Part shown: in pieces, positions 16,830 to 59,282 of the stretch
Position numbering within the stretch: position 1 is the first letter of the stretch
How the letters are laid out: each line of letters starts with the position of its first letter
NCBI GenBank assembly: GCA_030295235.1
Contig: AP026123.1
Span: 1,860,001-1,924,000 of the forward strand
Reading direction: 5' to 3'
Length of the DNA stretch: 64,000 bases
Origin: Fistulifera solaris
Lineage: Eukaryota
Notes under the pieces: model-generated
The model's database searches: none
What the model was told of the DNA's origin: nothing
Seen by the model: the letters and a program-made list of their open reading frames with translations, nothing else
Made by a program: the position numbers and the translations under genes

Positions 16830-17932
16830 ATGCATCCAAGGGCTTCTGCTTCTCGGCGATCGCTGGACAACACTTCGGACGTGGCCTTGCGTTCCAGGTC
16901 CGTGGAACGTTTCTCGGGCCAAGAGAGTGCGGACGGAACAAGTAACATGCACCCGACCGTCGAGAAAATGCCCATTCAGAGGTCTATGAGCGATCCTTTT
17001 GATACACAAGAAGATGCGGCAACGGTGGGAATCAGCGAGGAATCGGATGAAAGCAGTCTTGCTGCTTCTCGTTCTCGGACCATGTCAAAAGATATGAATC
17101 TTGCCACGATGCCGCGCTATCCGCACCACGAATCGAAGGACCGGAACACTTTCAGTGAACCTCCTATTTCCATATTCACGGTCCGTGGTCCTCATTACTT
17201 TCAAGATAAGAAGAAAGTATCAAGCGGGCCCTATTTACTACCTGCCAGAGGTTGCGATTTGCTACTGGTGGACGAAAACCAACATGTCGATCTCCGAGAG
17301 CGGTGAGTTCAATATATTTGTTACTTTGGATTGATTGCTCCCTTTCATTTACTAACACAATTTATCTTTACATCAACAGAACTCGCAATATCATGGGAGG
17401 GCAGCTCCGGAAGCGTCCTACATTGGCGATCAATTTTAAATTTCCTTGGGGTTACATGAATCTTTATTTCGAAGTACCGGATCGTTTGGCACCTTACATG
17501 AGTCCCTCTGTCACGCTGGCGAGCGGTTCGTCTTTTAATCCAGCGGAAAAATCACTGATAGCGTGGTTCCAAGGCGACCAGGAATATCGAAACGAACGAC
17601 TGAAATTGATTCCTTTTGTAGCCGAGGGACCTTGGGTGGTGCGGAATATGGTGACGGGGCGTCCTGCCATTATTGGTAAAAAGTTGCCTGTCACATATGA
17701 CTTGATGGTGGGCACCGAGACAGAAGCCCCGCTTCTCATGGCAACACTGGATATTGGGAGCAGCAGCGCGACAGCGAAACGAATTGTCTCCGTGTGTCGT
17801 CGCTACATGAGTTCGCTGACGGTTGATATTGGTTTTGTGATTCAAGCCGAAGAAGTATCGCAGCTACCGGAACAAATGATGGGATCCATCCGCGTGCATC
17901 ATGCGGATCCACTCAAGGCGCCTAAACTATAA
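16830..17932 (+). CDS. EDR2 C-terminal (DUF1336)-domain protein
   Basis: F.VRGP.YF.DKKKV, RNERLKLIP.V.EGPWVV, PAIIGKK, DIGSS and DIGFVIQ....LPE motifs; intron ~17303-17379. Confidence 0.88.
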
Positions 17933-18223
17933 ATACAAGTAATTATAATGAACATACTTTGACTATGTAATTGTTCATGATTGAACATTACTTCCTGTTA
18001 TATAGCTAGCTATACTCTACGAAGTCGACCAATACTATTCAGCGAATGAATCTGGAGTGACACTGTCGAATCAAAAGCATGATCTTCGGGGCAAGCAATG
18101 GCAACGACGATTGGCAACGTTGCTTGTCTACTAGGTCGAGAACGCGATTGAACACCAAACAAAAAGCTAGGGAGCGCATTTAGGACCTTGATGGCAATTA
18201 AAAAGATCGAAAAAGAGAGTTAA

Positions 18224-18275
18224 TGCACCGTCCGAGAATCGAACTCGGAGCTCGACGATGGCAACGTCGAATTTT
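18224..18275 (-). pseudogene. 3' part (52 nt) of the interrupted host tRNA-Gly(GCC) gene
   Basis: Minus strand AAAATTCGACGTTGCCATCGTCGAGCTCCGAGTTCGATTCTCGGACGGTGCA contains the anticodon arm (GCC), T arm and 3' acceptor strand, followed by a T-run terminator. The 5' part is missing here. Confidence 0.92.
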
Positions 18276-18307
18276 TTGTCTGAAAAAATTCAAAAAAAGA
18301 AACGCAG

Positions 18308-18378
18308 TGCAGCATCCGAGAATCGAACTCGGGGCACGACGATGGCAACGTCGTATGTTACCATTACACCAATGCTGC
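18308..18378 (-). tRNA. tRNA-Gly (GCC), intact, inside the element
   Basis: GCAGCAT TG GTGT AATGGTA ACAT A CGACG TTGCCAT CGTCG TGCC CCGAG TTCGATT CTCGG ATGCTGC A forms a complete 71-nt cloverleaf, with downstream T runs (Pol III terminator). Confidence 0.96.
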
Positions 18379-18470
18379 GTTTTTCAAAGAGTGTTCGAAA
18401 CAACTGAAGTACAATAAGTAAAAGGTACGGTAGTGGTAGGTCTCTAAGGTTATGAAGGCTTACAAATCGA

Positions 18471-21400
18471 TCAATCATTAATCGCCAAGTCATCTAGCGC
18501 TTCAGTGCGCTTTCGCTTCCGAGATCCACCTTCAACCGATTTGTCACCCGACAGCGAGTAATCTTTAAAATCCGCATTATCCAGTCCCTCAGGAATGGCT
18601 GCATCGTCCAAATCTAGCATGGCTGCATCGTCCAGATCATTGCTTTCCTCTTCGCGTTTCTGAAGTAATTCGAATAATTGCTGATCTGTCGCGATTTTTC
18701 CTTTATGGAGTCGATATTTTTCAAGTGCAGCGTCCACTTTCTCAGGCTTGACACTTTTCCGGAGGTACTCTTCTTGAAAGTGCGTCAAATCAGGGAATCT
18801 TGCACACTCCTCAGCTGTGTAAACGCCTTCAATACGCGCAACCTTCATCTTGTCACAGATCCTGTTCAACCTTTTACGCTGATTTTTCAACACTGCAGCT
18901 TGTTCTTTCTTTTCCTGCTCAGTTTGGGGATCTAACATTGCCTGCTTTCGCTTTGAAGAGTCGTAATGGCGCTTGATAGGCTTGTGCGGCACACCATTTT
19001 CATCTCGTCCTCGATGCTTGAGACTGTGCTTCTTTCGGTATTCGGCGTTCTCTTGCATCTTTTTCTCGCGAAACCATTCAGCTGCAATGCGTGCATTGGT
19101 GCAATTGCCATACTCAGTGTAGGTGAAGTACTTCTTTTTATGAGAAGCGCGTAACTTCTTTTCAAACACTTCATAGTCAGAATATATTGCATACCAGAGC
19201 TCTCCTTCTCGGTGAAAGACACCGGTCATTGTTCCGTCTTCACGATACCGTCGCGTAGTACGCTTGTTATTTGCACTTTCCAGGGGAGAAACAACAGCAA
19301 GATTGTCGAACGAGTTGTTTTCTCTGTTTCGATCGACGTGATCCACAATTTCAAGGTCTGTCAGCAATTCACCAGTAAAGCACTCCACTGCTAATCGATA
19401 GAAGCAATATCTTTTCCCGCCGATTGACACAGTGACGTGGACAATGGGGAGATTGGGTCCCTTGGGCTTGTAAGTTATGATCGTAATGTCATAGAAAAGT
19501 TTAGCGCGTGTATCATAAATAAGGGTACCGTCTGCGTTGATTTTGATCGGTAGGCTTGGATCCGGATAGTCATACCAGACTTCTTTCGGGTCGCAATCGG
19601 CAAACGTCTTATACTCGCTCTTCAGTATCTTGGTAGACTCTCGGCGTGCCAGTTCATTCCTGGAGTGCAAATGACATTGACGACAAAGTGAGCTTCTCGT
19701 GAATCATCTGAAACGACACATCAATATCCACTCACCCTCGTACACGATTCGATAATTGCAAGTTTTCACTCTGTGGAATCCAACGTAAGTATTCTGAATC
19801 ATTGTTGCACTGCTTTGACTTGTGGTGGATGACGTGTTTGGGAGTTGGTCGTGGTCCAATGAAAGTGGCTGCAATCAATCCAGCCAGGGAACACTCGTAT
19901 CCTGTGCTACTGCAGTCTTCGTCACAAAGATGGACATGACGATAGCCGAAAGCATCAGGGGTCGACTTAAGTAGTTTGTAACTTCGCACCAAATATCTCT
20001 TTTTCTTCCGTGCCGTCCTGTAGGTTCTCCGACCAATGATCTCACCTATCCCTTCTGCTAAATATCTCTTTGCAGTTTTCGGTTTCAGCCAATGACGGTG
20101 GCAGGCTATGGCAAATCCTAACGGACTGGCATAGTAAACGACCGGGAGTTGACCTGCTCCGTTACCCGACAGAAGCACCTGCGTGCTATTTTCTATATCA
20201 CCATAAATTTTTGGGGTTTGCTCGTCCGGAAAAGGAACAAATTCTGGAAACTGGGCAACTTTTACGCATTGCTCAGGCGTCAGCGCTGTTTTATCGGTAG
20301 CAAGAGCAGCTTGTATGTGGCGTGGTACCATCTTCAACTCTTTTTTCTCAAGTAAGGAATTCGCAATCTTTGCAGGAATAAAGTAGCCTTCCTCGTCCAT
20401 TTCAAAACCCGTGCTTTCTATATTCGACTCTACGGTCATGAGCAAGAAATCCAGCAATTCGTCGTCTGATGCATACTGTAAAGGCACGTTCTCAAACTTG
20501 ACGCCGCGTGGTTGATGCGTTCCAGTTCCGTCACTTTTGAAAGTTTCTGGATATGGGACCGACGGATACGATGGGACCGTGGGATCGTCGCTCGGAGAGA
20601 CAATGTTCCTTTCTGGGATCGGAACTTCGCTAGCATCGGCGTTGTCAGCTCTGTTTGAAATAAGGCGATAATGAATGAGTGCACGAGTGCAGCTATCTCT
20701 TACAAACATCTCCCAAACTTACCTTTCAAGGACAACATCACTATCCATTGCAGGTGCGCCGTTTTCTAAGACTACGTCCTTCGGTTCGTTGATATCCTCA
20801 AGTTCTGTCTCATCGGACGAAGTGGTCTTTTGGTCATCACTATGGGTGTCGTGTTCAACTTCACTTTGATCTGTAACAATATTGCTGTCTTGTGGCTTTG
20901 TACCTCCACGAAGACGCAGCAGCAGGTACAAAGTTGATTCCTTCTCAATGTTGTAGTCGCTTAAAGTTTTGGCGTCCTCGAGTTGCTTGCCGTTGTACAG
21001 CAAACGCTGTTGATCAGGTGGAATACATTCCCTGTCCTGGATTTTGGTTTTGACCTTGTAAACAAGATCCAAGGAATTTGCGTCGATGGTAATAGTACGC
21101 CCGGCCACAGTCTTCACGAAGATCTGCATGGTCGCTATTTGAGAAGCCGACTCCTGCTCCGTATTGGGGTCGCTAACAAAATTCTCGTTTTCGATGACAG
21201 ACGAAATACCTGGAGTGCCAATGACGTCCTTTGGTATGAGATTCCTGTACGGATAGAATCGTGCATTTCGGAGACGAAGTGGGAAGGACCTATGCACTAG
21301 ATTGCGGTAGGATTTAGTCCGAAGTTGGAGCTTCTGCTGATGTTTCTCCTCCTTTTTCTCCCGACGAGCGTCCGCTCTCCGCTGACGTCGCGACATAACT

Positions 21401-22560
21401 GGGGCTGCTGGAGTAGCAACAACCAGAGGAGTTGGCAAATCCGCTCTTCCAGGTTGGTCGGGGAAGTAGTTTAGCTGCAAATGGATCGACGTTAAACTCA
21501 CAGCGCCAACGGACTTTGACAGCCACAAGACGAATCCGACGAAGGCATAAAACAAAGTCGTTCTCGCCAAACCGAGCAAGAAAGTACTCGACCACGAGGG
21601 TCCTTTCGAACCAAGCGACGCTTGATGAATGATCTCGTCATTGTCACTATGTTTCGATTTAGAATGACTCTTCACGCGACTTTTCTCGCCTTTGCAGAAC
21701 CGCCGAGGGGGAGTAATGACGTTCTCAGCCGGGACAGCGCCAAAAACATTTATTTCTTCTATCGTATCAACTGAAACCTCATCGCTTTGTTGTGTCGTGT
21801 GATAATTAAGAGTCGTAGCGCGTCGTCCGGTATTGCTCCTAACACGACGCCAAGTGTTGCGTCTAAAACGTTGACAACGTCGCTGAGACCCAGCCTTTTT
21901 CTTGCGTTTGAACCGACTCTTTTTCCTTCGTCTACGCCGAGCGCGACTGATTTCAACCCGCTGAGCAAGATTCTGATCGTGATCGTTTCCATCCGATCCC
22001 GAGCTCGAGTCTGCAATCGAATCTACCACGACGAAGTCTTTCTGTCCGGCGCAATTGGTTTTCCGACTATTCGCGCCCACACCTTTCTTTGTCTCACCTA
22101 CCGGTGCGGGACCGTCGCCAATCTTGCTTTCCGCGGTGGACTCGTTCAAGCCAGTATCCGTCTTTGCAGCAGGGCTAACGTTAGACGAAGGAAGCCATTC
22201 ATCGCGAAGCACCGTGAGAAAAGCAACGCCATTCACTTTTGCCCCCAAGAGCTCCTCTGGTCCGTCGTCCTCATCGTCCGCGTCGAGACAAGCGAAGCGA
22301 TTCTCGTTGACACCGACAGAGAGATTCGCGGTCGTCCCCAAAAGATCCTCTGGTCCGTCGTCCTCGTCGTCCTCTTCGAGACAAGCAAAGCGATTCTTAG
22401 TGACAATGACAAATGAGCGATTCGCATTTTGAACTTCGAAGTCTGTTTGTCCATTGACACCACCGGCTGCCGAGCAACCATTGCCTTGCACGGTAATGAA
22501 GCCTTCCAAGTCAATATCAGGCGGGCCCGAACGCGACTCGCGTCTTCTCTTCGATCCCAT
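18471..22560 (-). CDS. ~1313-aa multidomain protein: low-complexity/basic N-terminus, ubiquitin, HNH, HNH plus AP2-like domain; exons 22560-20723, 20650-19736, 19659-18471
   Basis: Three ORFs are joined in frame by GT-AG introns 20651-20722 (GTAAGT..AACAG) and 19660-19735 (GTGAGT..TCCAG). Ubiquitin MQIFVKT...LRLRGG at 21129-20902. HNH-like [11 protein letters not shown]...VIHH....NN....LRW....EN and YRLAVECF.G....[19 protein letters not shown]2-like TGVF......WYA.....KKKYF...YG...ARIAA..FR. Confidence 0.85.
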
Positions 22561-23799
22561 ATTTACCGCGATTCGGGAAATATTATTGTTGAATCAAGTG
22601 GAGAGCAAAGAAAATTTAAAAGTCGTGTCTGCTGTGCTTTTTTGTTTCGCCACAAATGACGGCAAAGAAAGACAAATGAAGGCAAGAACAGGCAAGCCGG
22701 CCGTGAAAACGCAAGATACGCATGGCCAAAAGCTGGGCGGGAAATTATTCTTCTCTGGAATAGAAAGTACCCTCTATGATTGGAAATGTACACCAAGATA
22801 CTTTTCTCCGGGACCAACAACCGAAGTGTAACTCGTAACCTTACTTTGGGCAATATCAATGAAAATATCGTCGAAGCACGCTGATGCATATTATTTTCAC
22901 AATCGAGAGCGACGAGCAATAGATGACAAACACACGAATCAGTATTCGGTCGAGCAGCTGTCAAAACGTTTTTCAAAAGCAACCGTCGCTTCCTTTGCCC
23001 AGCGTCAGTCCTGCTCAAAAGCCGAGATTATGACGAGATTCCGTTCCGCGTCGTAGAAACTCACCATCGTTGTTTTACCCGCTCGTTTCTCCAAATGCAA
23101 TGCCTTAATCATCGGCTGCTCCACTAACGTAGCTAATTACAAAGATGTTGGGCATGTTCGCGATGTTGATCGAAAAGTTGTTACTTGATTCATAAACGCT
23201 AGAAAGCTCGATGGCTAGGCCGAGCAAATTAGGTCTCAAGCGCGTAATTGACTTCCCAAAATAAAGCTTGCGCGGTGTGATGCAATGACTCGACTTTTCT
23301 AAGTCGTCATTAGTAACTCGGACAGTATTTTCCATGTCACGGTAATGCGGAGAATCACTGTGAATGCCAGCGCTCACCATAACTTCTAGACCCACTAAAG
23401 TCTGGAAAGAGCCTCGTGGCTTCTCTTTCGAAAAGTAGCGCGAGTACATCAGCTGATGGGTCCGGTAGCCGTCGAATTTGATCAACAGATGGTTAAAGGT
23501 TCTCTGTATCTATCCACAAGTCACGTAGATCAAATGACTCTTGAAGAGTCGCATTTTCCACTGTTTGCGGTGCGTTGGGTTTATTCGAAGATGAAAGTAG
23601 TGTCGAGCAGAAAACATTGTAGCGGTATTCCAAACCGTGTTCCGTTGACGCCAATTGAAATTTAAGCATTTCGCCGTCGATGTGCTCCACCCTTTGAAAT
23701 TCGTATAACAAATTGAAAAGTCTCTACGGGCCTTTTAACACCGACAGATGCATTCGATAGTTTCATTGTTGCACAAGCAGAAGTCCGGAAAGGTGCAAA

Positions 23800-49788: not shown

Positions 49789-52700
49789 ATGTCGCCACCT
49801 CCAGCACTGGTCGAAGGGCGCAATGAAACATCGTTGCTAGTACAAATTTCTGAATCGTGTGCTCGTCACCGTTTGAGACATGAGAAGCAACAAAGTCATC
49901 ACGGGGCTGGCGAAGAGAATATGTCGACGTTTTGTCAGGAGAGCATTAAAACGTTACGAAAGATCGTGCCTAAAATCGAGCGACAGTATCATGCTTCAAC
50001 AAATCCGCAAGCAGAAGACATCGGTCATATCTGCGACTTTTACGAGCAACTGATTGAAGGAGACTTTTGTCCACATGCTCCTGATGCACTCCGACAAGAA
50101 AATGGGCCATTGAACGGTACGTTGAATGCTTTCAATTTTTACTGTTTGAAACTCGGCTGCCCTTTCTCATGTTCTTGCCACTCAGTGTTGCCGCGAATAT
50201 ATTTTTTATTTGAGAACCTCCTTTCTTTTTCTGTCATGGAAGATACAATGACGAGTAGTAGGACCGCAACATCGAGTAGGGTGTTTGAGAAGATCTGTCA
50301 AACGGTTGCACAATTGCTGGCAATGATGGCGGACTGCGCCGTGGTGCATGACATATTTCAGGATTGGTTCGAGCTAGCATTGGATTTGTCGTTACTCAGC
50401 CAGTCGACTCTTACGGACGATTATATGGATCAGGTCGAACTTTCGCTTTACGACCGGGTGTTGATGCAAAGCACGGCGATCATTGACGATAGAGACGAGT
50501 ACGTCTTGATTTTAAAGACAAAAGAGCACCTTTATATGATACAATCTGCTGTGACGACGGTGTTGTACCATTTGATTCATTTACTTCAGGAAAAAAGGCT
50601 GTTGGATGCAATGATGGTGGACATGGTGCAAAGCAACGGCTATGGCGATTCATACTTTATTGATTTGATCACCGAACGGCCAGATCTCTTCGAAGAGCTT
50701 TTAACAATGTCGCGACCAATACTATTATCGCCTGAATCTGAATCATTAAAGAAGAACGCGCTTAGAGTTCGTTCAAAGATGGCCACTCTTCGTCTTCTAC
50801 AAATGATGGATTCCGATTTGCGTGATATCGGAGTTGTGTCGCCGTTGGCCTCCCTTCGACTTCATCTGCACATTTTGATTGCTGAGGCAATCGGAAATGT
50901 TCTACAAACCAAACAAAGCTTTTCATTATCGAAGCTAGAGGCGTCCTACATCAGAAAGCTAGCACAATGTTTGACTGGAACCGTACACCGTTTTGGAGAA
51001 TGCCCTTCAGACCGTACAACCTATCTTGCACTGCTTTGGAATAGAATACAAAGCATACAAAGCTGCTTGAAAGTAAATCCAGCTAGACGAGCACTTGAAG
51101 TCGCGGTACTTCGTTCCATTCACATGTTGCTGGTGAAAGTCGGGAAATGTGGACACGCCGAAGCTCAAGTCTCGGACCATGACACGCTGACGCACGTCTT
51201 AGGCTTGGTCGAAGATCCTGACTTCCATGAGTATGCAATCTGGATAATTTCGGCTATTTTGGCAATGAACGGATACGATAATTTAGAGGATATTTGCGGT
51301 GAAGCGATACGCCACGACGAAACGGAATTTGTCGACGAAAAGGTAGTTTCGGGGACAAAGAGGACGCTTCCTACCCGTGAGCTTGCGAGTTTCACTAAAC
51401 GTCAGAAATATGATGAAGTGGGCAGTACTTTGCGGCCGGACGAACGTCGCGAAAACATGGTTAGGGCTGTGGCCGAGGATCTGCTGCAATTGCTTATCTA
51501 TGAAAGGCAATCAAATCAGGCAACATCTGCAAGCTCAATCAAAGTCCTTGGTGGGATCAGGATTGTTCTTGCTCTCGCGGAAGCCACTACTTCTTTAGGG
51601 CAGGTCGCCGAGATGTGGTTTAGTCGAGTGTTGTTAGATGTCGCGTTGCAGCTGGCTCGAAACGTTCAAGATTCGGACGTGTCGAGCGAAAGCCGAGTAG
51701 TGCTGCGAAGCCTAGTATGCTGTGGACTTCATGTGTTTCAAGTTCGTAGCCACTGTCCAGACCTGTTTGCAAACGCACTCGCAGCGGCTCTACCGGTAGA
51801 CGACTTCGTAGAGACTTGCGAAAGTTTATTTTTGCTTTTGCTAAATGAAGGTCAAATTGAAAAGCATCCCTGGGTTCTTGACAGTGTCTTTCACCATTGT
51901 CTCCATTTGCAATTCACGGCAAGATCAAGACCATCAAATCCCTTAGCTTCGTTTGATATTGAGGTCTTCACTTTCTTCCTCGTTCGGGTATCCTTCGACG
52001 GAGTTAAAGTGACGTCACAGAAATTTGAAAAGGTCAATGCTGAGGGGTCGCACGATACACAAGATAAAAGACTTTCCTTCCTTGCTTCATCGGTCAAGTT
52101 AGTACTCCCAGAATCCAATCTGACAACTCAGCAAAAGACTTGTCGTTTGTTGGCGTTGATAGACTTCAAAATTCTGAATTCTTGGTCCAAAAAAACATGT
52201 TTGCTTTCGATTCAATGGCTTCTACGCGAATCATCTCTGCACGACCTTCGACGCATGATGAACCGATATAACCGAGAGAGACCTTTAAGCGGATCCGACC
52301 TTTGGCGTTTCGTAATTGACTGCTGCTTTGCCGACGACGATGCGAGTATACGAAAAATTTCTGCGGAAATTATCCAACTCGTTTTCAATGATGGATCAAC
52401 GGGGTTAATTCCTTGTCTACTTTCAACAGACGACGAGTGGATAGCCCTGAATTCAGGAGCACAAAGTACCCACGACTTATCACAAGTGCAAATTTTGGAT
52501 CAGCTTGTTATTCGGTTTTTTCGGAATGTCGATGAGTTGCTGCACAGGCGCTGCTGCGTGCCCCAATCTCAGCTGTCATTGACCATTGGGTCAGTCTCCA
52601 GCTCCAGCAGTGAAAAATCATTGAAAAGAGACAGGAATTTTGAACAACTGATTTTTCAATGTCGACGTGCAACTAAGGTTCTTTTGTCATTTTGCGTGGA

Positions 52701-55700
52701 CAAAGATGATTATTTAATGAAAAGGGTTTTACACTCTTCTCTCACTCGAGTTGTTCGGCTTTGGTCCGGACCAGGGACTCTTCGTAACGAGACTCACTGG
52801 ATTTCTTTCGTCGAACTGTCTCGCTGGATTTACGGTTCCGTGGTATCGAGGGTGTTTGACGACGAAAACATTAAACGTTTTGTTCCCAACCTCTTCAGAG
52901 AAGTGCTGGTGCCCAGTTCCACTATATTGATGGCTGACGGTCGCACGGGTATCGATAATATTCGAGATGGGACGAAGGAACGACATTGTCTCTTACTATC
53001 AACTTTTATTGGTGTTTTTATTTTGAGCGGTTCAGCCGACGCAGAGGGGGACGTCAATCGCTGCCAGAAATCACGGATGTGTTAATGACATCGAAAGGTT
53101 TCTTGGAACTTACCTTCCTTATATTTTCTCTCAGTTTGTTCTTGAGAGAGACTATGACGCTCTCAGACTTACGACGTGCTTTAAGTTTTTCATTCTCGGA
53201 CAAAAACTTTTTGAGTCAAAGCAAAAGATGAGAGTTTCAAACGACGGATTAAAGATGAACTATGTTTTTGATCTTTCCCTTGGAAGCCCAAAGTCTACTT
53301 TTGTCACGTCCTCCATGCTTTCGAGAGTCTGGCGACATGATTTGGAGGAACAAACAGGTTCCTTATGCTCCTCGACGGATGTTTTTGCCACACTGCTGCC
53401 GTTGGTGTTTACACGAGCAGGTGAATCGGAGATTATCTTCCTTATGCAAACTGTTTTGAAAAACAGGCTGATTTCTCTTACCAAAACGATCCAGACTAAC
53501 GAGAGAATTATTTTAAGGAACATATTGCTCGAGATAGGGGACAATTATTACAGTTATGATCCGGTCTTCAGAGCCTTCAAACTCATCGACTACTTCCGCA
53601 CTCTCAGTGATGAGGCATCTTCAAGACCTTTGTCTACTCTTTATCGCAACTTCAAAGATCATGATGAAAGTCATTCCGAATGGATTACGATGCATTTCAT
53701 GTACCTGGTCGTGCAAATAGTGCAATTCCGATGGAGTACAAAGACTGATAAAGAGAGAACCCAGTCTTTGAGATCATTACTGTTTGCAGTACGCTTACTC
53801 GACCCGAAGGAATCCTGCCAATACTTCCCTCAGATCATCGCTACACTCAACGCTGCTGTTGCTTTGTGCGAAGAAAGGGCTACCCATGATACAGAGGAAG
53901 TGATGTTGGTGGCCGTCCAAATCTTGTCTGAATTCATCAAGTTAGCAGGGGAAAGCAACACAGAACTGTTGGGCCAAAATCTCAAGATTGTTGTTGTATC
54001 ACTAGTTCCAGTATTGAGCGAAAGCGAGTACTCTCATGAGTCATCAGCGCGATCGGCCTCTCGAAATGTTGGGATTGAAATTATCCAGGGACTTGTCCAA
54101 GGTGACATCGGCAGGCGTCTTGCTCCATATTTTTCTGATATTCCCTTTCTTCCGTCTAATGAAGCTCTCCACAGTGTTAAAGAGTCGCTCCGTTCTTTGG
54201 GCGTTGACAACGATACTGTCCTCTCAACACAGGGCACTCAAGACGGAGCTAGCACTGATCAATCGCATAACGACACGTCGAAACAAGAAGCTTTGCGTCA
54301 GCGTTTGGCGACTGTCTGTCCTCTAATAGCACACGAGAACGCAGGAGTTAGGCGGATCGCTCTCAAGCATATCATTGATCTGCTGAAAGCGAATAGATAT
54401 CTTTTCCATGCACTTGTCGAGAACGAAGGAGACACATCCATGAAACATTACCTTACGGTAATTAAGCCGGAGACTTCAGGTACGTAAAGCATCGCGATGC
54501 CTACTAAGATTTTCGGGAAAATAGTCTCACAATAATATCTGCACTGACAAGGTTCGTCCTATGGTACCGTCACTGAGCTTCTCGAAGCCGTGATGAGTCG
54601 ATGCCTGGTGGAGACTGATGAGAAAACGAGAATTCTGCTTGCAACATGTATTGGTGAGGTTGGCGCCATTGCTGTAGATAGACTGGAAGAAAACTCCGAC
54701 AAAAATAGTTGTGTAAAAATGGAGAACGGTCCATGGAAATCACGTGCGGCGCGACACCAGCTCAAGCTTGTGACAGAACATTTAGTGACTTCCCTAAAGG
54801 CAGCACATACCACATCAGATCAACATAAAATCATGTTCACAATCCAGCAAGTTCTTCAAATTCTTGACAAATCTGTGAGCAAACGCAAAGTACACGACGA
54901 CACTTCGAATTCTGAGAAGAGTGAAATGAGCGGCTGGCTTTCAGCGCAGCTCTCAAATGCGGGGGTCCTTGATATTGTCGAGCCTTTCTGGTGGACAGAA
55001 TTTTGCGAGGTAAGTTCGAATTCGTCAATCGATAACGTTTCTTACATTAATCTCACCAGCTTCCTTCGAAAGTCTGAAGCGGCTGTAACATGGAAAAATC
55101 CTCCCTTTTTTAATGAGTCGCCATCTTATTTTGCCTGGATGTCTAATTGGTGCTCATATCTGGCTCGTCGAGCTTACGATAAAAGGGAGACCGAGTGGAG
55201 TGAACTATTTTATGCATGCAGAACTGCCCTACGGACTCCAGTCGGGCTAGAGATCGCAGAGTACTTACTACCTATACTGATCCTTGATAGGATATGTTTT
55301 GGAGACGCCCATGACGAAAAGGTCATTTTGGACGAGATTCGATCAGCTCTGACTTTTCGAAACGACTTTTATCCAAAGATGATTCACACGGAAAGACAAA
55401 AGTGGTGAACACGCTTCTTGACCTCATAGAGACAATGCAGCGGTGGCACGAACAAGAGACCGAGTCAAAACTGACAGGTTCTGTCAAAGCAGTAGAGTCC
55501 CGTGAGTGTAAAGACAATAATCATAACTTCGAGCCTCCGATCAATCGCGCTGCTTTCAACTGGACAGTCGAAGACGCCACGATGCGAATAGATGACATTC
55601 TAACCAATATTCCACTTTCGTTGCGGGCACGAGCTGCCTCTTGCGTGGGGATGCATTCACGAGCTTTGCGACTGTTTGAAATGGTGGCTCGACAACGCAC

Positions 55701-58700
55701 CGTGAAAGCTGTTTTTGAGAATACAAAAACAAAGTATGTATGCGATAAACAAACTCGATCTAGAGCTGCTGGGACTTGTTATGGTTCTGAACTGGAATAT
55801 TTCATGGAGACACTGTGCTCATTAGACGATTATGAGACGCTATCGTGCCTATTAGAAGACGAGAGTACGAAAAACGGGGCTTCTTTTTCTTGGGGCGCTA
55901 CTAAGAAGAAGGAGATTTCTGGTGATTGGGAAGGTGCTCTACAAGACTACGAGAGAGCACTACAGTTACAACGGACTGACAAAAGTGAGTTCATTCATTT
56001 GCAAAAAGGAGCTTTGCGTTGTTTACTGGAGCTTGGCCACTTCGAAAGTGTGATAAATCAAGTGTCAGGACTGATGAGCGAGTCATCCAACGCCAATAAC
56101 GACTGTTCTATTTATGATGAGTACCTCCCAGCTTCAGTCGAAGCCTCGTGGCGTCTTGGTGACTGGAATTCGCTTGAGAGTTTGTCTAAATCTGAGACTA
56201 GACAGAAATGCAGTCGCGAATGTTCTGGATTAACTCAGGGAGACATTATACTTGAGCTGCGAAAAGGAAATTTTGACATGGCGATGACACACTTGGCGAA
56301 TGCCCGCAGATTGATCATGAATGCTCTATCTATAACGGCAAGTGAGGGCTATGCTCGTGCATTTCGTGACGTTATCAGCTTGCATGCCTTACGCGAGATT
56401 GAAGACGTCGCAAGCATTATCTGTGATGATGATGCATCAAAAAATTTGGGAGACTTACTTGCGAAAGCTGATCTCTCTTGGGATCGACGTCTTTCTTTTG
56501 TCGGCCCAGTTGGGGCTTCACACATTTTGGATACCCGCCTTGCATTATCAAGGTTAGCGGGTGACTCTATTTTGGAAGGATCGATGTTTTTGCAAATGGG
56601 AAAGATGGCTCGTAAGGACAAACTATTAGGCACCGCAGCAAATGCGCTTAGTCAAGCGCAAGCTGTGTTTTGCAAAGTGAAAGCGGGCAATTGGAACGGA
56701 CATGGTATTACTCGGAGCTCCATGCATTTCCAATTCGCGAAACTAAAGCACGACAGCGGCGACTGCACTTCAGCTCTCCGCATGCTTGATATAGGCGATC
56801 TTGATACCTTGGTTCATTTATCTGATTCAGATCTTCGCCTGCAAGTTTCTGAAAGGGTAAAATTCTTTCTTGGATCAGAATGCCACGGAATGACGAGCGA
56901 AGAGACGGTTTCCGTTTTTGCTAAAAGCGTACTTCAGTCTACGCGTTGGATGATCGATGGGGGACTGAAGGGCGGTTCTGAAATAATGTCTCGCTTTCGA
57001 ATCTTACATCAAGTAGCACCACGGCTTGAAAAAGGTAGGCCATGTTTCAGTGGCAAATAAAATTCTCTTGCAGCTTGACTGACAGCATTTCAGGGCATTT
57101 TTATTTTGCAAAGTACGTAGATGCAATTTTGCGGTCCAGAATCATTGCGATACTGAGGAAATCTCCTGAAGGACGTTCACGCGAAAGCGATGATATTCTT
57201 GATGGTTTTGTAGTTGCTCATGACAGAGCATGCCAGCGCTACATCTTACTAGCCATAAAGCATTACGTCGAAGCTCTAATCATTGACATTCGCCACGTTT
57301 ATCAGGCTCTCCCACGATTGCTTTCTTTATGGTTTGAATTTACCAGCATTGGGAGCACTGAACAGTCCAAATACAGGGTGTATGAAGAACCGACAGCTCA
57401 AGGTAAGATTGTTCTTGGTCTGCTGCGTATTTTCGCAATCACATCTAATCCGAATGCAATAGTTTTAACGCAGAACCAAGAAGAGGCGAATGCCGTGATA
57501 GCCACAAAATACAAGCAAATACCTGTTCCAGCTTTCTACACCGCACTCCCTCAACTCATTTCTCGGGTAAAGCACCCAAATAGCGACACAACCACCGTGG
57601 TACACGGCATCGTTCGCCGCGTATTGACCAAATATCCAGCACAGGCTATGTGGCCACTAGCCTGGCTGCGCCAATCACGGCAGCATGATCGTCAAAAAGC
57701 AGGCAATGAAATTTTTCGCGAAGCTGAGTTACGTCTCGCGGAGACTTCGAACAGACTTCATTTGCTTTTAGTCGAATCCAAGAGTCTCTTCGAGTGGCTT
57801 CAAAAACTCGCTAAATTTGAGCCAAAAAGGCGCGATGCACCGAGATAAAAGTCACTCCATGGAAAGGACAGATAGGCCTTGAAGAGTTCATTCCACCCGT
57901 CAAAGCTGCTTTGTCTGCCTCTTTTTCTATTGGAGATAGCGAGCGGTCAAGGGATTTATTTCCTCGCCATGTTCCTCGAATGAGAGCATTTTCCTCCACG
58001 ATCAAAGTCATGCAGTCGAAAGCTCGACCGAAGATTCTCAAGGCCCACGTTGTTTCTGCTGATTCTTTGACAAAAATAAAGGAAAGAACGAGCAGTGGCT
58101 GTTTTGACATAGGTGAAATTCATTTCTTGGTGAAGCAGGAAGCCAAGGGTGATCTCCGGAAAGATGCTAGGGTACAAGAACTTAACAACGTAGTGAATCG
58201 TCTACTAGTATCAACGGCCGGCCGAACAATGAATCAGAGACGCCCATTACGTATTCGGACTTTTGCGGTAACCTGTTTATCTGAGGACACGGGCATTCTT
58301 GAGTGGGTTCCAGATACATCGTCATTTCGATCCTTGATTGGTAAGGCATTCAACCCACAAGTGAATACATACACCGCACAGCGCAGAGGGGCCAGACTGG
58401 CAAATCTCGGCGATCCTGTGATGAGGAAGGATTATGAAAGATGCCAGGAAATGTTTTTCGTGTCGAAAAATTTAAAGGCTGCAACAAAGATGTTTGAGGA
58501 GCTCTGTTTAAGTACTAATCCACCCCTTCTATTTTGGTGGTTCGTGCATGCCTTTGAAAACTCGAATGCGTGGTACGAAGCTCGAACCCGCTTCACTCGA
58601 AGTTCCGCTGCTTGGGCCGCAATTGGACACGTACTGGGAGTCGGTGATAGGCATGCTGAGAACATACTGGTGGATACGTCAAACGGCGAATGCGTACATG

Positions 58701-59282
58701 TCGACTTTGACTGGTAAGTCGTCTTGTTGGCTTTGTGTTTAGCTGAATAGAGAGGTGAGTAATCCTAACCTACGATTGATCAGTATCTTTGATAAGGGCC
58801 TTCACCTACCGAAGCCAGAAGTTGTTCCTTTTCGGCTCACGCAGAACATGCTGGATGCGTTTGGACCAACGGGTGCGGATGGTATTTTTAGTGATATTCT
58901 GTACAAAGCGATGCACACTCTACGAGACAACCGTGACACTCTATTATCGGTTCTCGAGCCCTTTCTAAAAGATCCTGTCATTGATTGGAAACGTTCACGT
59001 AGTCAGCAACAAGACAAAAATTCGTCCGGAGAAGACCACAACACCAAAGAGGCCAAGAGATCCATTAACGTGATTGATGAAAGGTTGCGTGGAATTTACA
59101 ACTTGCGGAATCCGAATTACAAACGCATTCGTCGAAATGATACTTTCGTCGACCAAGAAGATGAAGAGCTGACGCACATGCTTCCCCTTTCGGTGGAAGG
59201 TCAAGTGCACAAGATGATCGCCGAGGCGACGAGCAACGAGAACTTGGTCCAAATGTACATAGGTTGGATGGCTTGGCTGTAG
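49789..59282 (+). CDS. ATR: ATR/Mec1 PIKK-family checkpoint kinase, multi-exon with several apparent frameshifts
   Basis: FAT region (YQALPRLLSLW, LPQLISR..H), kinase motifs (DLRKDAR, GILEWV, LGVGDRHAENIL, HVDFD, PEVVPFRLTQNM) and FATC LSVEGQV..MI.EAT...NL..MYIGW. Confidence 0.93.

Follow-up and report, generated by a model that had tools for sequence, protein, structure and literature searches.

A probable three-exon nuclear gene of Fistulifera solaris joins a ubiquitin-like domain to two HNH modules and a diverged AP2-type domain

We analysed a 64,000-nucleotide stretch of Fistulifera solaris DNA (contig AP026123.1 of assembly GCA_030295235.1, positions 1,860,001 to 1,924,000 of the forward strand), called the window below; coordinates are counted from its first letter. 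Three minus-strand open reading frames (ORFs) lie head to tail at 20719-22560 (613 amino acids), 19732-20709 (325 amino acids) and 18471-19670 (399 amino acids). A preliminary description, made from the sequence alone, had merged them through two canonical introns of 72 and 76 nucleotides into one nuclear gene with tandem HNH endonuclease domains and an AP2-like domain. The merged frame was borne out. Joining 22560-20723, 20650-19736 and 19659-18471 gives a coding sequence of 3942 nucleotides, or 1313 codons, with a single terminal stop (checked by script), and both introns (20651-20722 and 19660-19735) have the positions, GT-AG ends and frame-keeping property that had been claimed. The junctions were read by hand on the sequence and then checked by script. 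Exon 1 starts at the ATG at 22560, with an in-frame TAA immediately 5' of it. The parts of the proposed gene are listed below, with a slash at each splice point.

20723-22560, minus strand: exon 1, residues 1-613 of the model and a 613-amino-acid ORF in which Pfam finds the ubiquitin family only
21481-21585, minus strand: hydrophobic segment and possible membrane helix, at about residues 326-360, with a Kyte-Doolittle 19-residue mean of up to 1.8
20902-21129, minus strand: ubiquitin-like domain of 76 amino acids, MQIFVKT...LRLRGG, with a Pfam ubiquitin score of 81.7 bits
20651-20722, minus strand: proposed intron 1, 72 nucleotides, AAG/GTAAGT ... TTTCAAACAG/A (ends AAACAG), phase 2
19736-20650, minus strand: exon 2, about 190 amino acids of unknown fold followed by HNH module 1
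19736-20094, minus strand: HNH module 1, amino acids 206-325 of the exon-2 ORF, a beta-rich N-domain plus a beta-beta-alpha core
19660-19735, minus strand: intron 2, 76 nucleotides, AGG/GTGAGT ... TTGCACTCCAG/G (ends CTCCAG), phase 2
18471-19659, minus strand: exon 3, stop codon within the range
19230-19586, minus strand: HNH module 2, amino acids 29-147 of the exon-3 ORF, a NUMOD4-like beta-domain plus a core (YRLAVECF...)
19014-19229, minus strand: AP2-type domain, amino acids 148-219 of the exon-3 ORF, predicted as three strands and a long helix
18690-18926, minus strand: conserved C-terminal motif, amino acids 249-327 of the exon-3 ORF, present in relatives P0001, P0002 and P0005 and twice in P0039
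18507-18521, minus strand: basic cluster RKRKR near the C-terminus, resembling a nuclear-localisation signal

Both phase-2 introns restore the downstream frame. Intron 2, read base by base from 19735 to 19660, runs AGG/GTGAGT...GCACTCCAG. The two upstream ORFs stop inside consensus AG/GT(A/G)AGT donors, with TAA (intron 1) and TGA (intron 2) occupying intron bases +2 to +4, as expected where the reading of an ORF continues into a genuine donor. Other genes of the window likewise contain short GT-AG introns, their donors being of the GTAAGT type. Many other GT-AG pairs 30-300 nucleotides apart keep the frame as well, 28 at junction 1 and 35 at junction 2, and an open spliced frame is therefore weak evidence when taken by itself.

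Relatives were retrieved by a library search with the exon-3 ORF, which returned 425 proteins at E≤0.001, 12 of them at E≤1e-10 and four at E≤1e-30; the best 150 of the 425 were used for hidden Markov model (HMM) and column counts, and 36 were scanned with Pfam. One relative, P0003 (1013 amino acids), spans the second junction. Its residues 30-315 align to amino acids 42-325 of the exon-2 ORF (48% identity, E 9e-91) and its residues 317-553 to amino acids 6-233 of the exon-3 ORF (44% identity, E 9e-56). P0003 is contiguous where the 76-nucleotide intron comes out, no residue being gained or lost, so that both the frame and the family conservation continue across junction 2. P0001, P0002 and P0004 begin no more than about 22 amino acids upstream of the intron-2 point, and their starts translate like pyrimidine tracts; several relatives of about 200 amino acids have the same kind of start. 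We infer that such proteins were called as single ORFs from eukaryotic contigs and have the position of intron 2 in common.

Intron 1 received no such support from relatives, and this counts against a single gene. P0003 lacks the ubiquitin part: it begins 29 amino acids before the homology, which itself starts only at amino acid 42 of the exon-2 ORF, and exon 1 was matched by none of the 150 best relatives. Furthermore, an ATG at 20709, within the proposed intron, could begin a separate protein. The locus could accordingly be divided into two genes, a ubiquitin-like ORF that ends at its TAA and an HNH-HNH-AP2 gene that starts at ATG 20709, with intron 2 alone real; the 28 frame-keeping pairs at junction 1 also favour this division. 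However, only 10 nucleotides lie between the TAA and the ATG, too few to hold both a 3' end and a promoter. This stop falls at bases +2 to +4 of a full AAG/GTAAGT donor, the same arrangement as at the homologue-supported intron 2, and a pyrimidine run and CAG mark the acceptor of intron 1. Most relatives, moreover, are single-ORF fragments and unable to reveal an upstream exon. We consider two genes unlikely. One gene of three exons and 1313 codons (22560-18471, minus strand), from which intron 1 would be spliced, is probable.

Profile searches of the HNH regions placed both modules in known families, with matches well above chance level. Module 2 scored 31.2 bits with Pfam HNH_3 (cut-off 24.8, E 1.7e-7, amino acids 92-131), and the exon-3 ORF matched seven PHROG HNH families, the best being phrog_59 (E 8e-12). 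Module 1 scored 17.2 bits with HNH_3, under the cut-off, which is a point against its assignment, so the HNH_3 check suggested in the preliminary description came out as predicted for one module of the two. The phrog_959 profile matched module 1 at amino acids 206-322 (E 2e-9) and also covers amino acids 29-147 of the exon-3 ORF. A protein atlas search with the exon-2 ORF returned HNH_3 clusters at a score of 0.91. NCBIfam gave no match for the HNH ORFs, and phmmer searches of both against PDB sequences gave chance-level PadR matches or none. The peptides that had been read as HNH motifs were located at amino acids 278-310 of the exon-2 ORF (19780-19878, minus strand) for the first and at amino acids 91-124 of the exon-3 ORF (19299-19400, minus strand) for the second.

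Structures were predicted with AlphaFold from alignments of the retrieved relatives. Amino acids 1-240 of the exon-3 ORF gave a mean predicted local distance difference test score (pLDDT) of 91.5 and a predicted template modelling score of 0.84. For exon 2 (304 amino acids) the pLDDT was 56.7 overall; residues 190-304 reached about 90, whereas most of the first 185 stayed below 50. When the models were compared with the PDB by Foldseek, the phage enzyme I-HmuI (1u3e) ranked first for module 2 (E 0.012, probability 1.00, 110 columns) and was the sole match at E≤0.001 for module 1 (E 2.9e-5, root-mean-square deviation 3.6 Å, 123 columns). The profile of a 52-sequence family alignment, A1, also matched I-HmuI (E 8.8e-13). 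Against predicted viral structures (BFVD), the module 2 model had 109 matches at E≤0.001; among the best 50 of these, every named row was a phage or giant-virus HNH, NUMOD4 or homing endonuclease, with the exception of one giant-virus RNA polymerase subunit. On these models both HNH modules are real and share the I-HmuI-like beta-beta-alpha-metal fold, as the preliminary description had supposed of its two HNH domains and had proposed to examine by structure prediction. A recent internal duplication as the source of the pair was considered and rejected: the two modules align to each other at a BLASTP E value of 2, and an HMM of module-2-type cores misses module 1 at 1e-3.

Directly after the core of module 2, the model places strands at residues 151-154, 158-165 and 176-183 and then a helix at 190-219. 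This three-stranded sheet with a C-terminal helix is homologous to solved AP2 domains: the A1 profile matched T. gondii AP2IX-6 (E 9.9e-6 and 1.9e-5) and, more distantly, AP2IV-1 (E 0.0023), 6sy0 (E 0.0029) and AP2VIIb-2 (E 0.0072), and T. gondii AP2-factor chains took Foldseek ranks 2, 3 and 13 (probabilities 1.00, 0.28 and 0.80). In the A1 alignment the stretch follows the GV...W.A...F...G...A..A..WR pattern seen in the relatives, of which 6 of the 36 scanned had a Pfam AP2 match, above the cut-off in two (P0010 and P0015). An HMM seeded with the AP2-like stretch of the four closest sequences was iterated on the 150 relatives, with E values scaled to that set. It reached P0006, P0007, P0012 and P0014 at their Pfam-AP2 coordinates, and it missed P0010 and P0015, the strongest AP2 carriers.

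Several observations speak against the AP2 assignment. Searched directly, the protein gave no Pfam AP2 match (PF00847, cut-off 33.3 bits) at E≤1. The A1 profile is dominated by other family members, and the Foldseek E values for the AP2 chains are weak (0.12-1.3). Furthermore, P0001, the closest relative (70% identity over amino acids 4-147), lacks amino acids 148-246, that is, the AP2-like and basic stretch encoded at 18930-19229, and yet keeps the C-terminal motif. P0001 may be a natural orthologue without AP2, or the difference may reflect an extra intron or isoform; either way, at least one relative or isoform can do without the AP2 domain. We accept an AP2-type domain, strongly diverged, on the strength of the model and the family profile. 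Of the AP2-like segment in the preliminary description, the presence at amino acids 148-207 (19050-19229) was upheld by fold and A1 profile; a direct Pfam match was not obtained.

Tandem HNH modules are the majority state among relatives and not special to this gene. With a local HMM of the HNH core, at least one core was found in 148 of the 150 best relatives and at least two, up to six, in 91, and Pfam placed two to five HNH_3 stretches in 18 of 36; the match list is biased towards multi-domain proteins, and the share with tandem HNH is inflated by this. The order of parts is the same in relatives at 41-70% identity, and the HNH-AP2 pair also occurs in P0010, P0012 and P0015. The N-terminal part of exon 2, about 190 amino acids, is common to P0003 only. 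In P0037 the HNH-AP2 module is joined to a Myb-like domain and in P0032 to a helicase-associated HA domain, which points to a eukaryotic family in which the module is recombined with regulatory domains of the host. The C-terminal motif, with the pattern ...(Y/F)(T/K)AEECA..P.L.H..EEYL..., is present in two copies in P0039 and in one here; it had no match in Pfam or in the protein atlas, where the query was the C-terminal 164 amino acids. The RKRKR cluster could act as a nuclear-localisation signal, judging by its composition.

The catalytic residues were compared with those of I-HmuI, for which D74, H75 and N96 are described as the conserved catalytic residues (PMC12724721). Numbered along the I-HmuI chain in the A1 alignment, the positions of interest are D74, H75, N83, N87, N96 and N99. 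Their equivalents in module 2 are D110, H111, N119, N123, S132 and N135, with Ser in the column of the metal-ligand Asn N96. For module 1, placed by hand from the LRW...EN spacing and the Pfam match, they are H295, H296, N303, Y307, N316 and L319, with His in the D74 column and the N96-type Asn kept. P0003 also has H296, N303 and N316 of module 1 and the same His in the D74 column; at the N96 column of module 2 it has Asn, and Ser is found in four of the five closest module-2 sequences. The preliminary description had held that the first His of each motif appears substituted (YRL and GLI) and that activity would on that ground need testing. The substitution is there, but the column concerned corresponds to H56 of I-HmuI (His in 210 of 259 cores taken from the 150 relatives) and not to D74, H75 or N96. 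The catalytic His itself has not been lost, being present as H296 and H111; the actual departures are D74 to His in module 1 and N96 to Ser in module 2.

These departures bear on whether the protein can still cut. Each module carries one change in the D74/H75/N96 triad, and each change is rare (5 of 259 cores have His at the D74 column and 6 of 259 have Ser at the N96 column), so cleavage may be weak or lost, which weighs against a nuclease. The same gene could then encode a catalytically dead protein, in which the HNH modules are DNA-binding folds beside AP2 and the whole is a transcription-factor-like regulator, standing between an endonuclease and an AP2 factor. The retention of Ser at the N96 column in most of the closest module-2 sequences fits this view, as do the fusions of relatives to Myb-like or HA domains, the basic clusters resembling nuclear-localisation signals, the nuclear and intron-bearing setting and the published hypothesis, as outlined in PMC4778941, that AP2 factors arose from HNH-AP2 endonucleases. 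However, the general-base His is invariant in A1 (H111, 52 of 52 rows) and is His in 257 of the 259 cores, and N119, N123 and L124 are kept too; such conservation is not expected were the chemistry dispensable. The family also tolerates change at the N96 column, where Asn (149 of 259) is accompanied by Gln (56), His (13), Ser (6) and a gap (32). At the D74 column the counts are Asp 197, Asn 27, Glu 7 and His 5. We regard complete loss of catalysis as possible and rather doubtful.

No part of the architecture is more unusual than exon 1, with its ubiquitin-like domain and hydrophobic segment, to which the preliminary description had given little weight. The ubiquitin-like domain scored 81.7 bits with PF00240 (cut-off 25.4, E 3e-23) and aligned without gaps to ubiquitin chains (a hand count of the match line gave 52 identities in 76 residues), and it ends in LRLRGG; with a beta-grasp match and a C-terminal Gly-Gly it belongs to the ubiquitin family. 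It is preceded by 477 amino acids, followed by a 60-amino-acid acidic linker, and found in none of the 150 best relatives. The N-terminal region is mostly low-complexity, with basic clusters at amino acids 208-222. It also contains two copies, about 35 amino acids apart, of an NRFACL(E/D)-acidic-DDGPE(D/E)LLG motif (22150-22400, minus strand, exon 1 amino acids about 55-135) that matched no family. Ubiquitin-ribosomal protein fusions and polyubiquitin have the same 76-amino-acid domain ending in RGG with an in-frame protein after it; in contrast to these natural fusions, the domain here is only 52/76 identical and internal, and the linker and an intron come before the cargo. A more elaborate scheme, which we consider improbable, would make the product a membrane-tethered precursor held by the hydrophobic segment, from which a deubiquitinase cut after RGG would free HNH-HNH-AP2 to enter the nucleus by its basic clusters. 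If this were true, a domesticated homing endonuclease would be released under the control of ubiquitin, and the protein would be a living intermediate on the way from endonuclease to AP2 transcription factor.

The window is eukaryotic nuclear DNA. Its long ORFs match ordinary eukaryotic proteins, among them a FAT-domain kinase, KTI12, poly(A) polymerase, insulinase, isocitrate lyase and PP2C, and the G+C content is even (0.43-0.51), the gene matching its surroundings. Within the 64 kb we found no second copy of the gene and no third copy of the HNH module. A scan of 185,579 bacterial and archaeal genomes with a single protein, sensitive to close relatives only, found no relative, and a tblastn search of phages gave two weak matches (30-34% identity). 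Alternatively, the gene could be selfish, a homing-endonuclease gene that is or recently was active, or it could be what remains of a viral insertion and serve the host in no way. The phage and giant-virus homing endonucleases among the fold and sequence relatives favour this view, and HNH-AP2 genes are described as multiplying and decaying in phage genomes (PMC2248197). Mobile homing-endonuclease genes lie in self-splicing introns or inteins, or stand free at polymorphic sites beside their target, often in many copies. Nevertheless, the gene has spliceosomal GT-AG introns and an intact frame of 1313 codons, it is single in the window, with ordinary genes on both sides and no composition shift, and the order of its parts is kept in the relatives at 41-70% identity; the Myb-like or HA domains of other relatives also speak for a host gene. 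A selfish or leftover gene of this kind is very unlikely, and the gene appears to be kept by the host and not to move by itself.

The reading that we prefer, to which we give a probability of about one half, is a three-exon nuclear gene for a large DNA-targeting protein that derives from an HNH-AP2 homing-endonuclease module of phage or giant-virus type and has been kept by the host. Its parts would follow one another from a disordered N-terminus with the hydrophobic segment, through the ubiquitin-like domain (RGG), the acidic linker and the region of about 190 amino acids of unknown fold, to HNH module 1, HNH module 2, the AP2-type domain, the conserved C-terminal motif and the basic cluster. 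Recognition of a long and asymmetric DNA site would fall to AP2 acting together with the beta-rich N-domains of both HNH modules. Like I-HmuI, the protein would still cut a single strand, through at least one of its His-Me fingers. The general-base His and the metal-ligand Asn persist in module 1, and the Asp-His pair persists in module 2, where Ser occupies the Asn position. The product is probably a sequence-specific DNA-binding protein, to judge from its domains, and may still nick. That two HNH domains could make a double-strand break, as had been proposed, is a reasonable conjecture. To the points against this reading that were given above for intron 1, module 1, AP2 and the catalytic residues must be added the word-index protein searches with the exon-2 and exon-3 ORFs, which gave no match, a result that does not show fused forms to be absent.

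The gene does not represent a new kind of system. It is best read as a member of the known HNH-AP2 lineage to which a second HNH module and an unusual exon with a ubiquitin-like domain have been added. I-HmuI and I-BasI, phage intron-encoded HNN nicking enzymes, share with both modules the beta-rich N-domain and the beta-beta-alpha-metal core, and their general-base His and NN and NL boxes are kept here. I-HmuI has one module, whereas there are two per chain here, and its C-terminal NUMOD/helix-turn-helix part is replaced by AP2. Each module of the window gene differs at one position from its D74/H75/N96 triad, and I-HmuI sits in a group I intron while the window gene is nuclear with spliceosomal introns. 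I-HmuI is described as nicking one strand (PMC3017599), and in an account of the Cap5 tetramer two HNH domains are in the active state for DNA-strand cleavage (PMC12141522).

Free-standing HNH(HNN)-AP2 endonucleases of phages, cyanobacteria and ciliates were reportedly described by Magnani et al. in 2004. Like the present gene they have an HNH_3-type core directly followed by AP2. They are about 150-250 amino acids long and mobile, whereas the window gene has 1313 codons in several exons, a second HNH, a ubiquitin-like domain, lineage-specific N- and C-terminal regions and an AP2 too diverged for Pfam. Examples from a Xanthomonas phage are given in PMC2248197. The link to phage-type HNH-AP2 endonucleases that the preliminary description had drawn agrees with the BFVD and A1 profile matches and with the accounts in PMC4778941 and PMC2248197. 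With AP2 and ApiAP2 factors the protein shares the domain of three strands plus helix, as reflected in the A1 matches to AP2IX-6, AP2IV-1 and 6sy0; the nuclease is lost in those factors, whereas here two HNH modules with their catalytic His are still attached.

The idea of an endonuclease ancestry for AP2 factors draws chiefly on genes of phages, bacteria and ciliates. In the present case an HNH-AP2 module is found in an ordinary intron-bearing nuclear gene, with the catalytic His in both modules and an order common to related proteins, and its partners are of host type, a ubiquitin-like domain in this gene and Myb or HA in relatives. Should the protein prove both to bind and to nick DNA, it would provide a concrete intermediate on which the transition from endonuclease to factor could be tested; if it only binds, the HNH fold would have been reused as a DNA reader. 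Its main value is thus as a testable intermediate for the endonuclease-to-AP2-factor hypothesis. AP2 factors are described as prevalent in plants, apicomplexans and diatom algae (PMC1702500), and their descent from HNH-AP2 endonucleases has been proposed (PMC4778941, PMC1702500). Our literature searches found no paper on an HNH plus AP2 gene of this sort in diatoms or stramenopiles and none on tandem HNH_3 chains; the 'two HNH' papers among those listed concern separate genes or oligomers.

Other features of the window were recorded alongside. A tRNA-Gly(GCC) gene lies at 18307-18378 (minus strand; ARAGORN, Rfam 61 bits), 93 nucleotides downstream of the stop codon, and tRNA was all that Rfam found in 17900-23000. 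At 18210-18275, 84 nucleotides away, there is a 66-nucleotide partial copy of this tRNA, 83% identical and not called as a tRNA, which may be a fragment or pseudogene. Elsewhere, six same-strand ORFs at 49789-58717 (plus strand), one of them with a FAT domain, look like a single large TOR/PIKK-type kinase gene with short introns.

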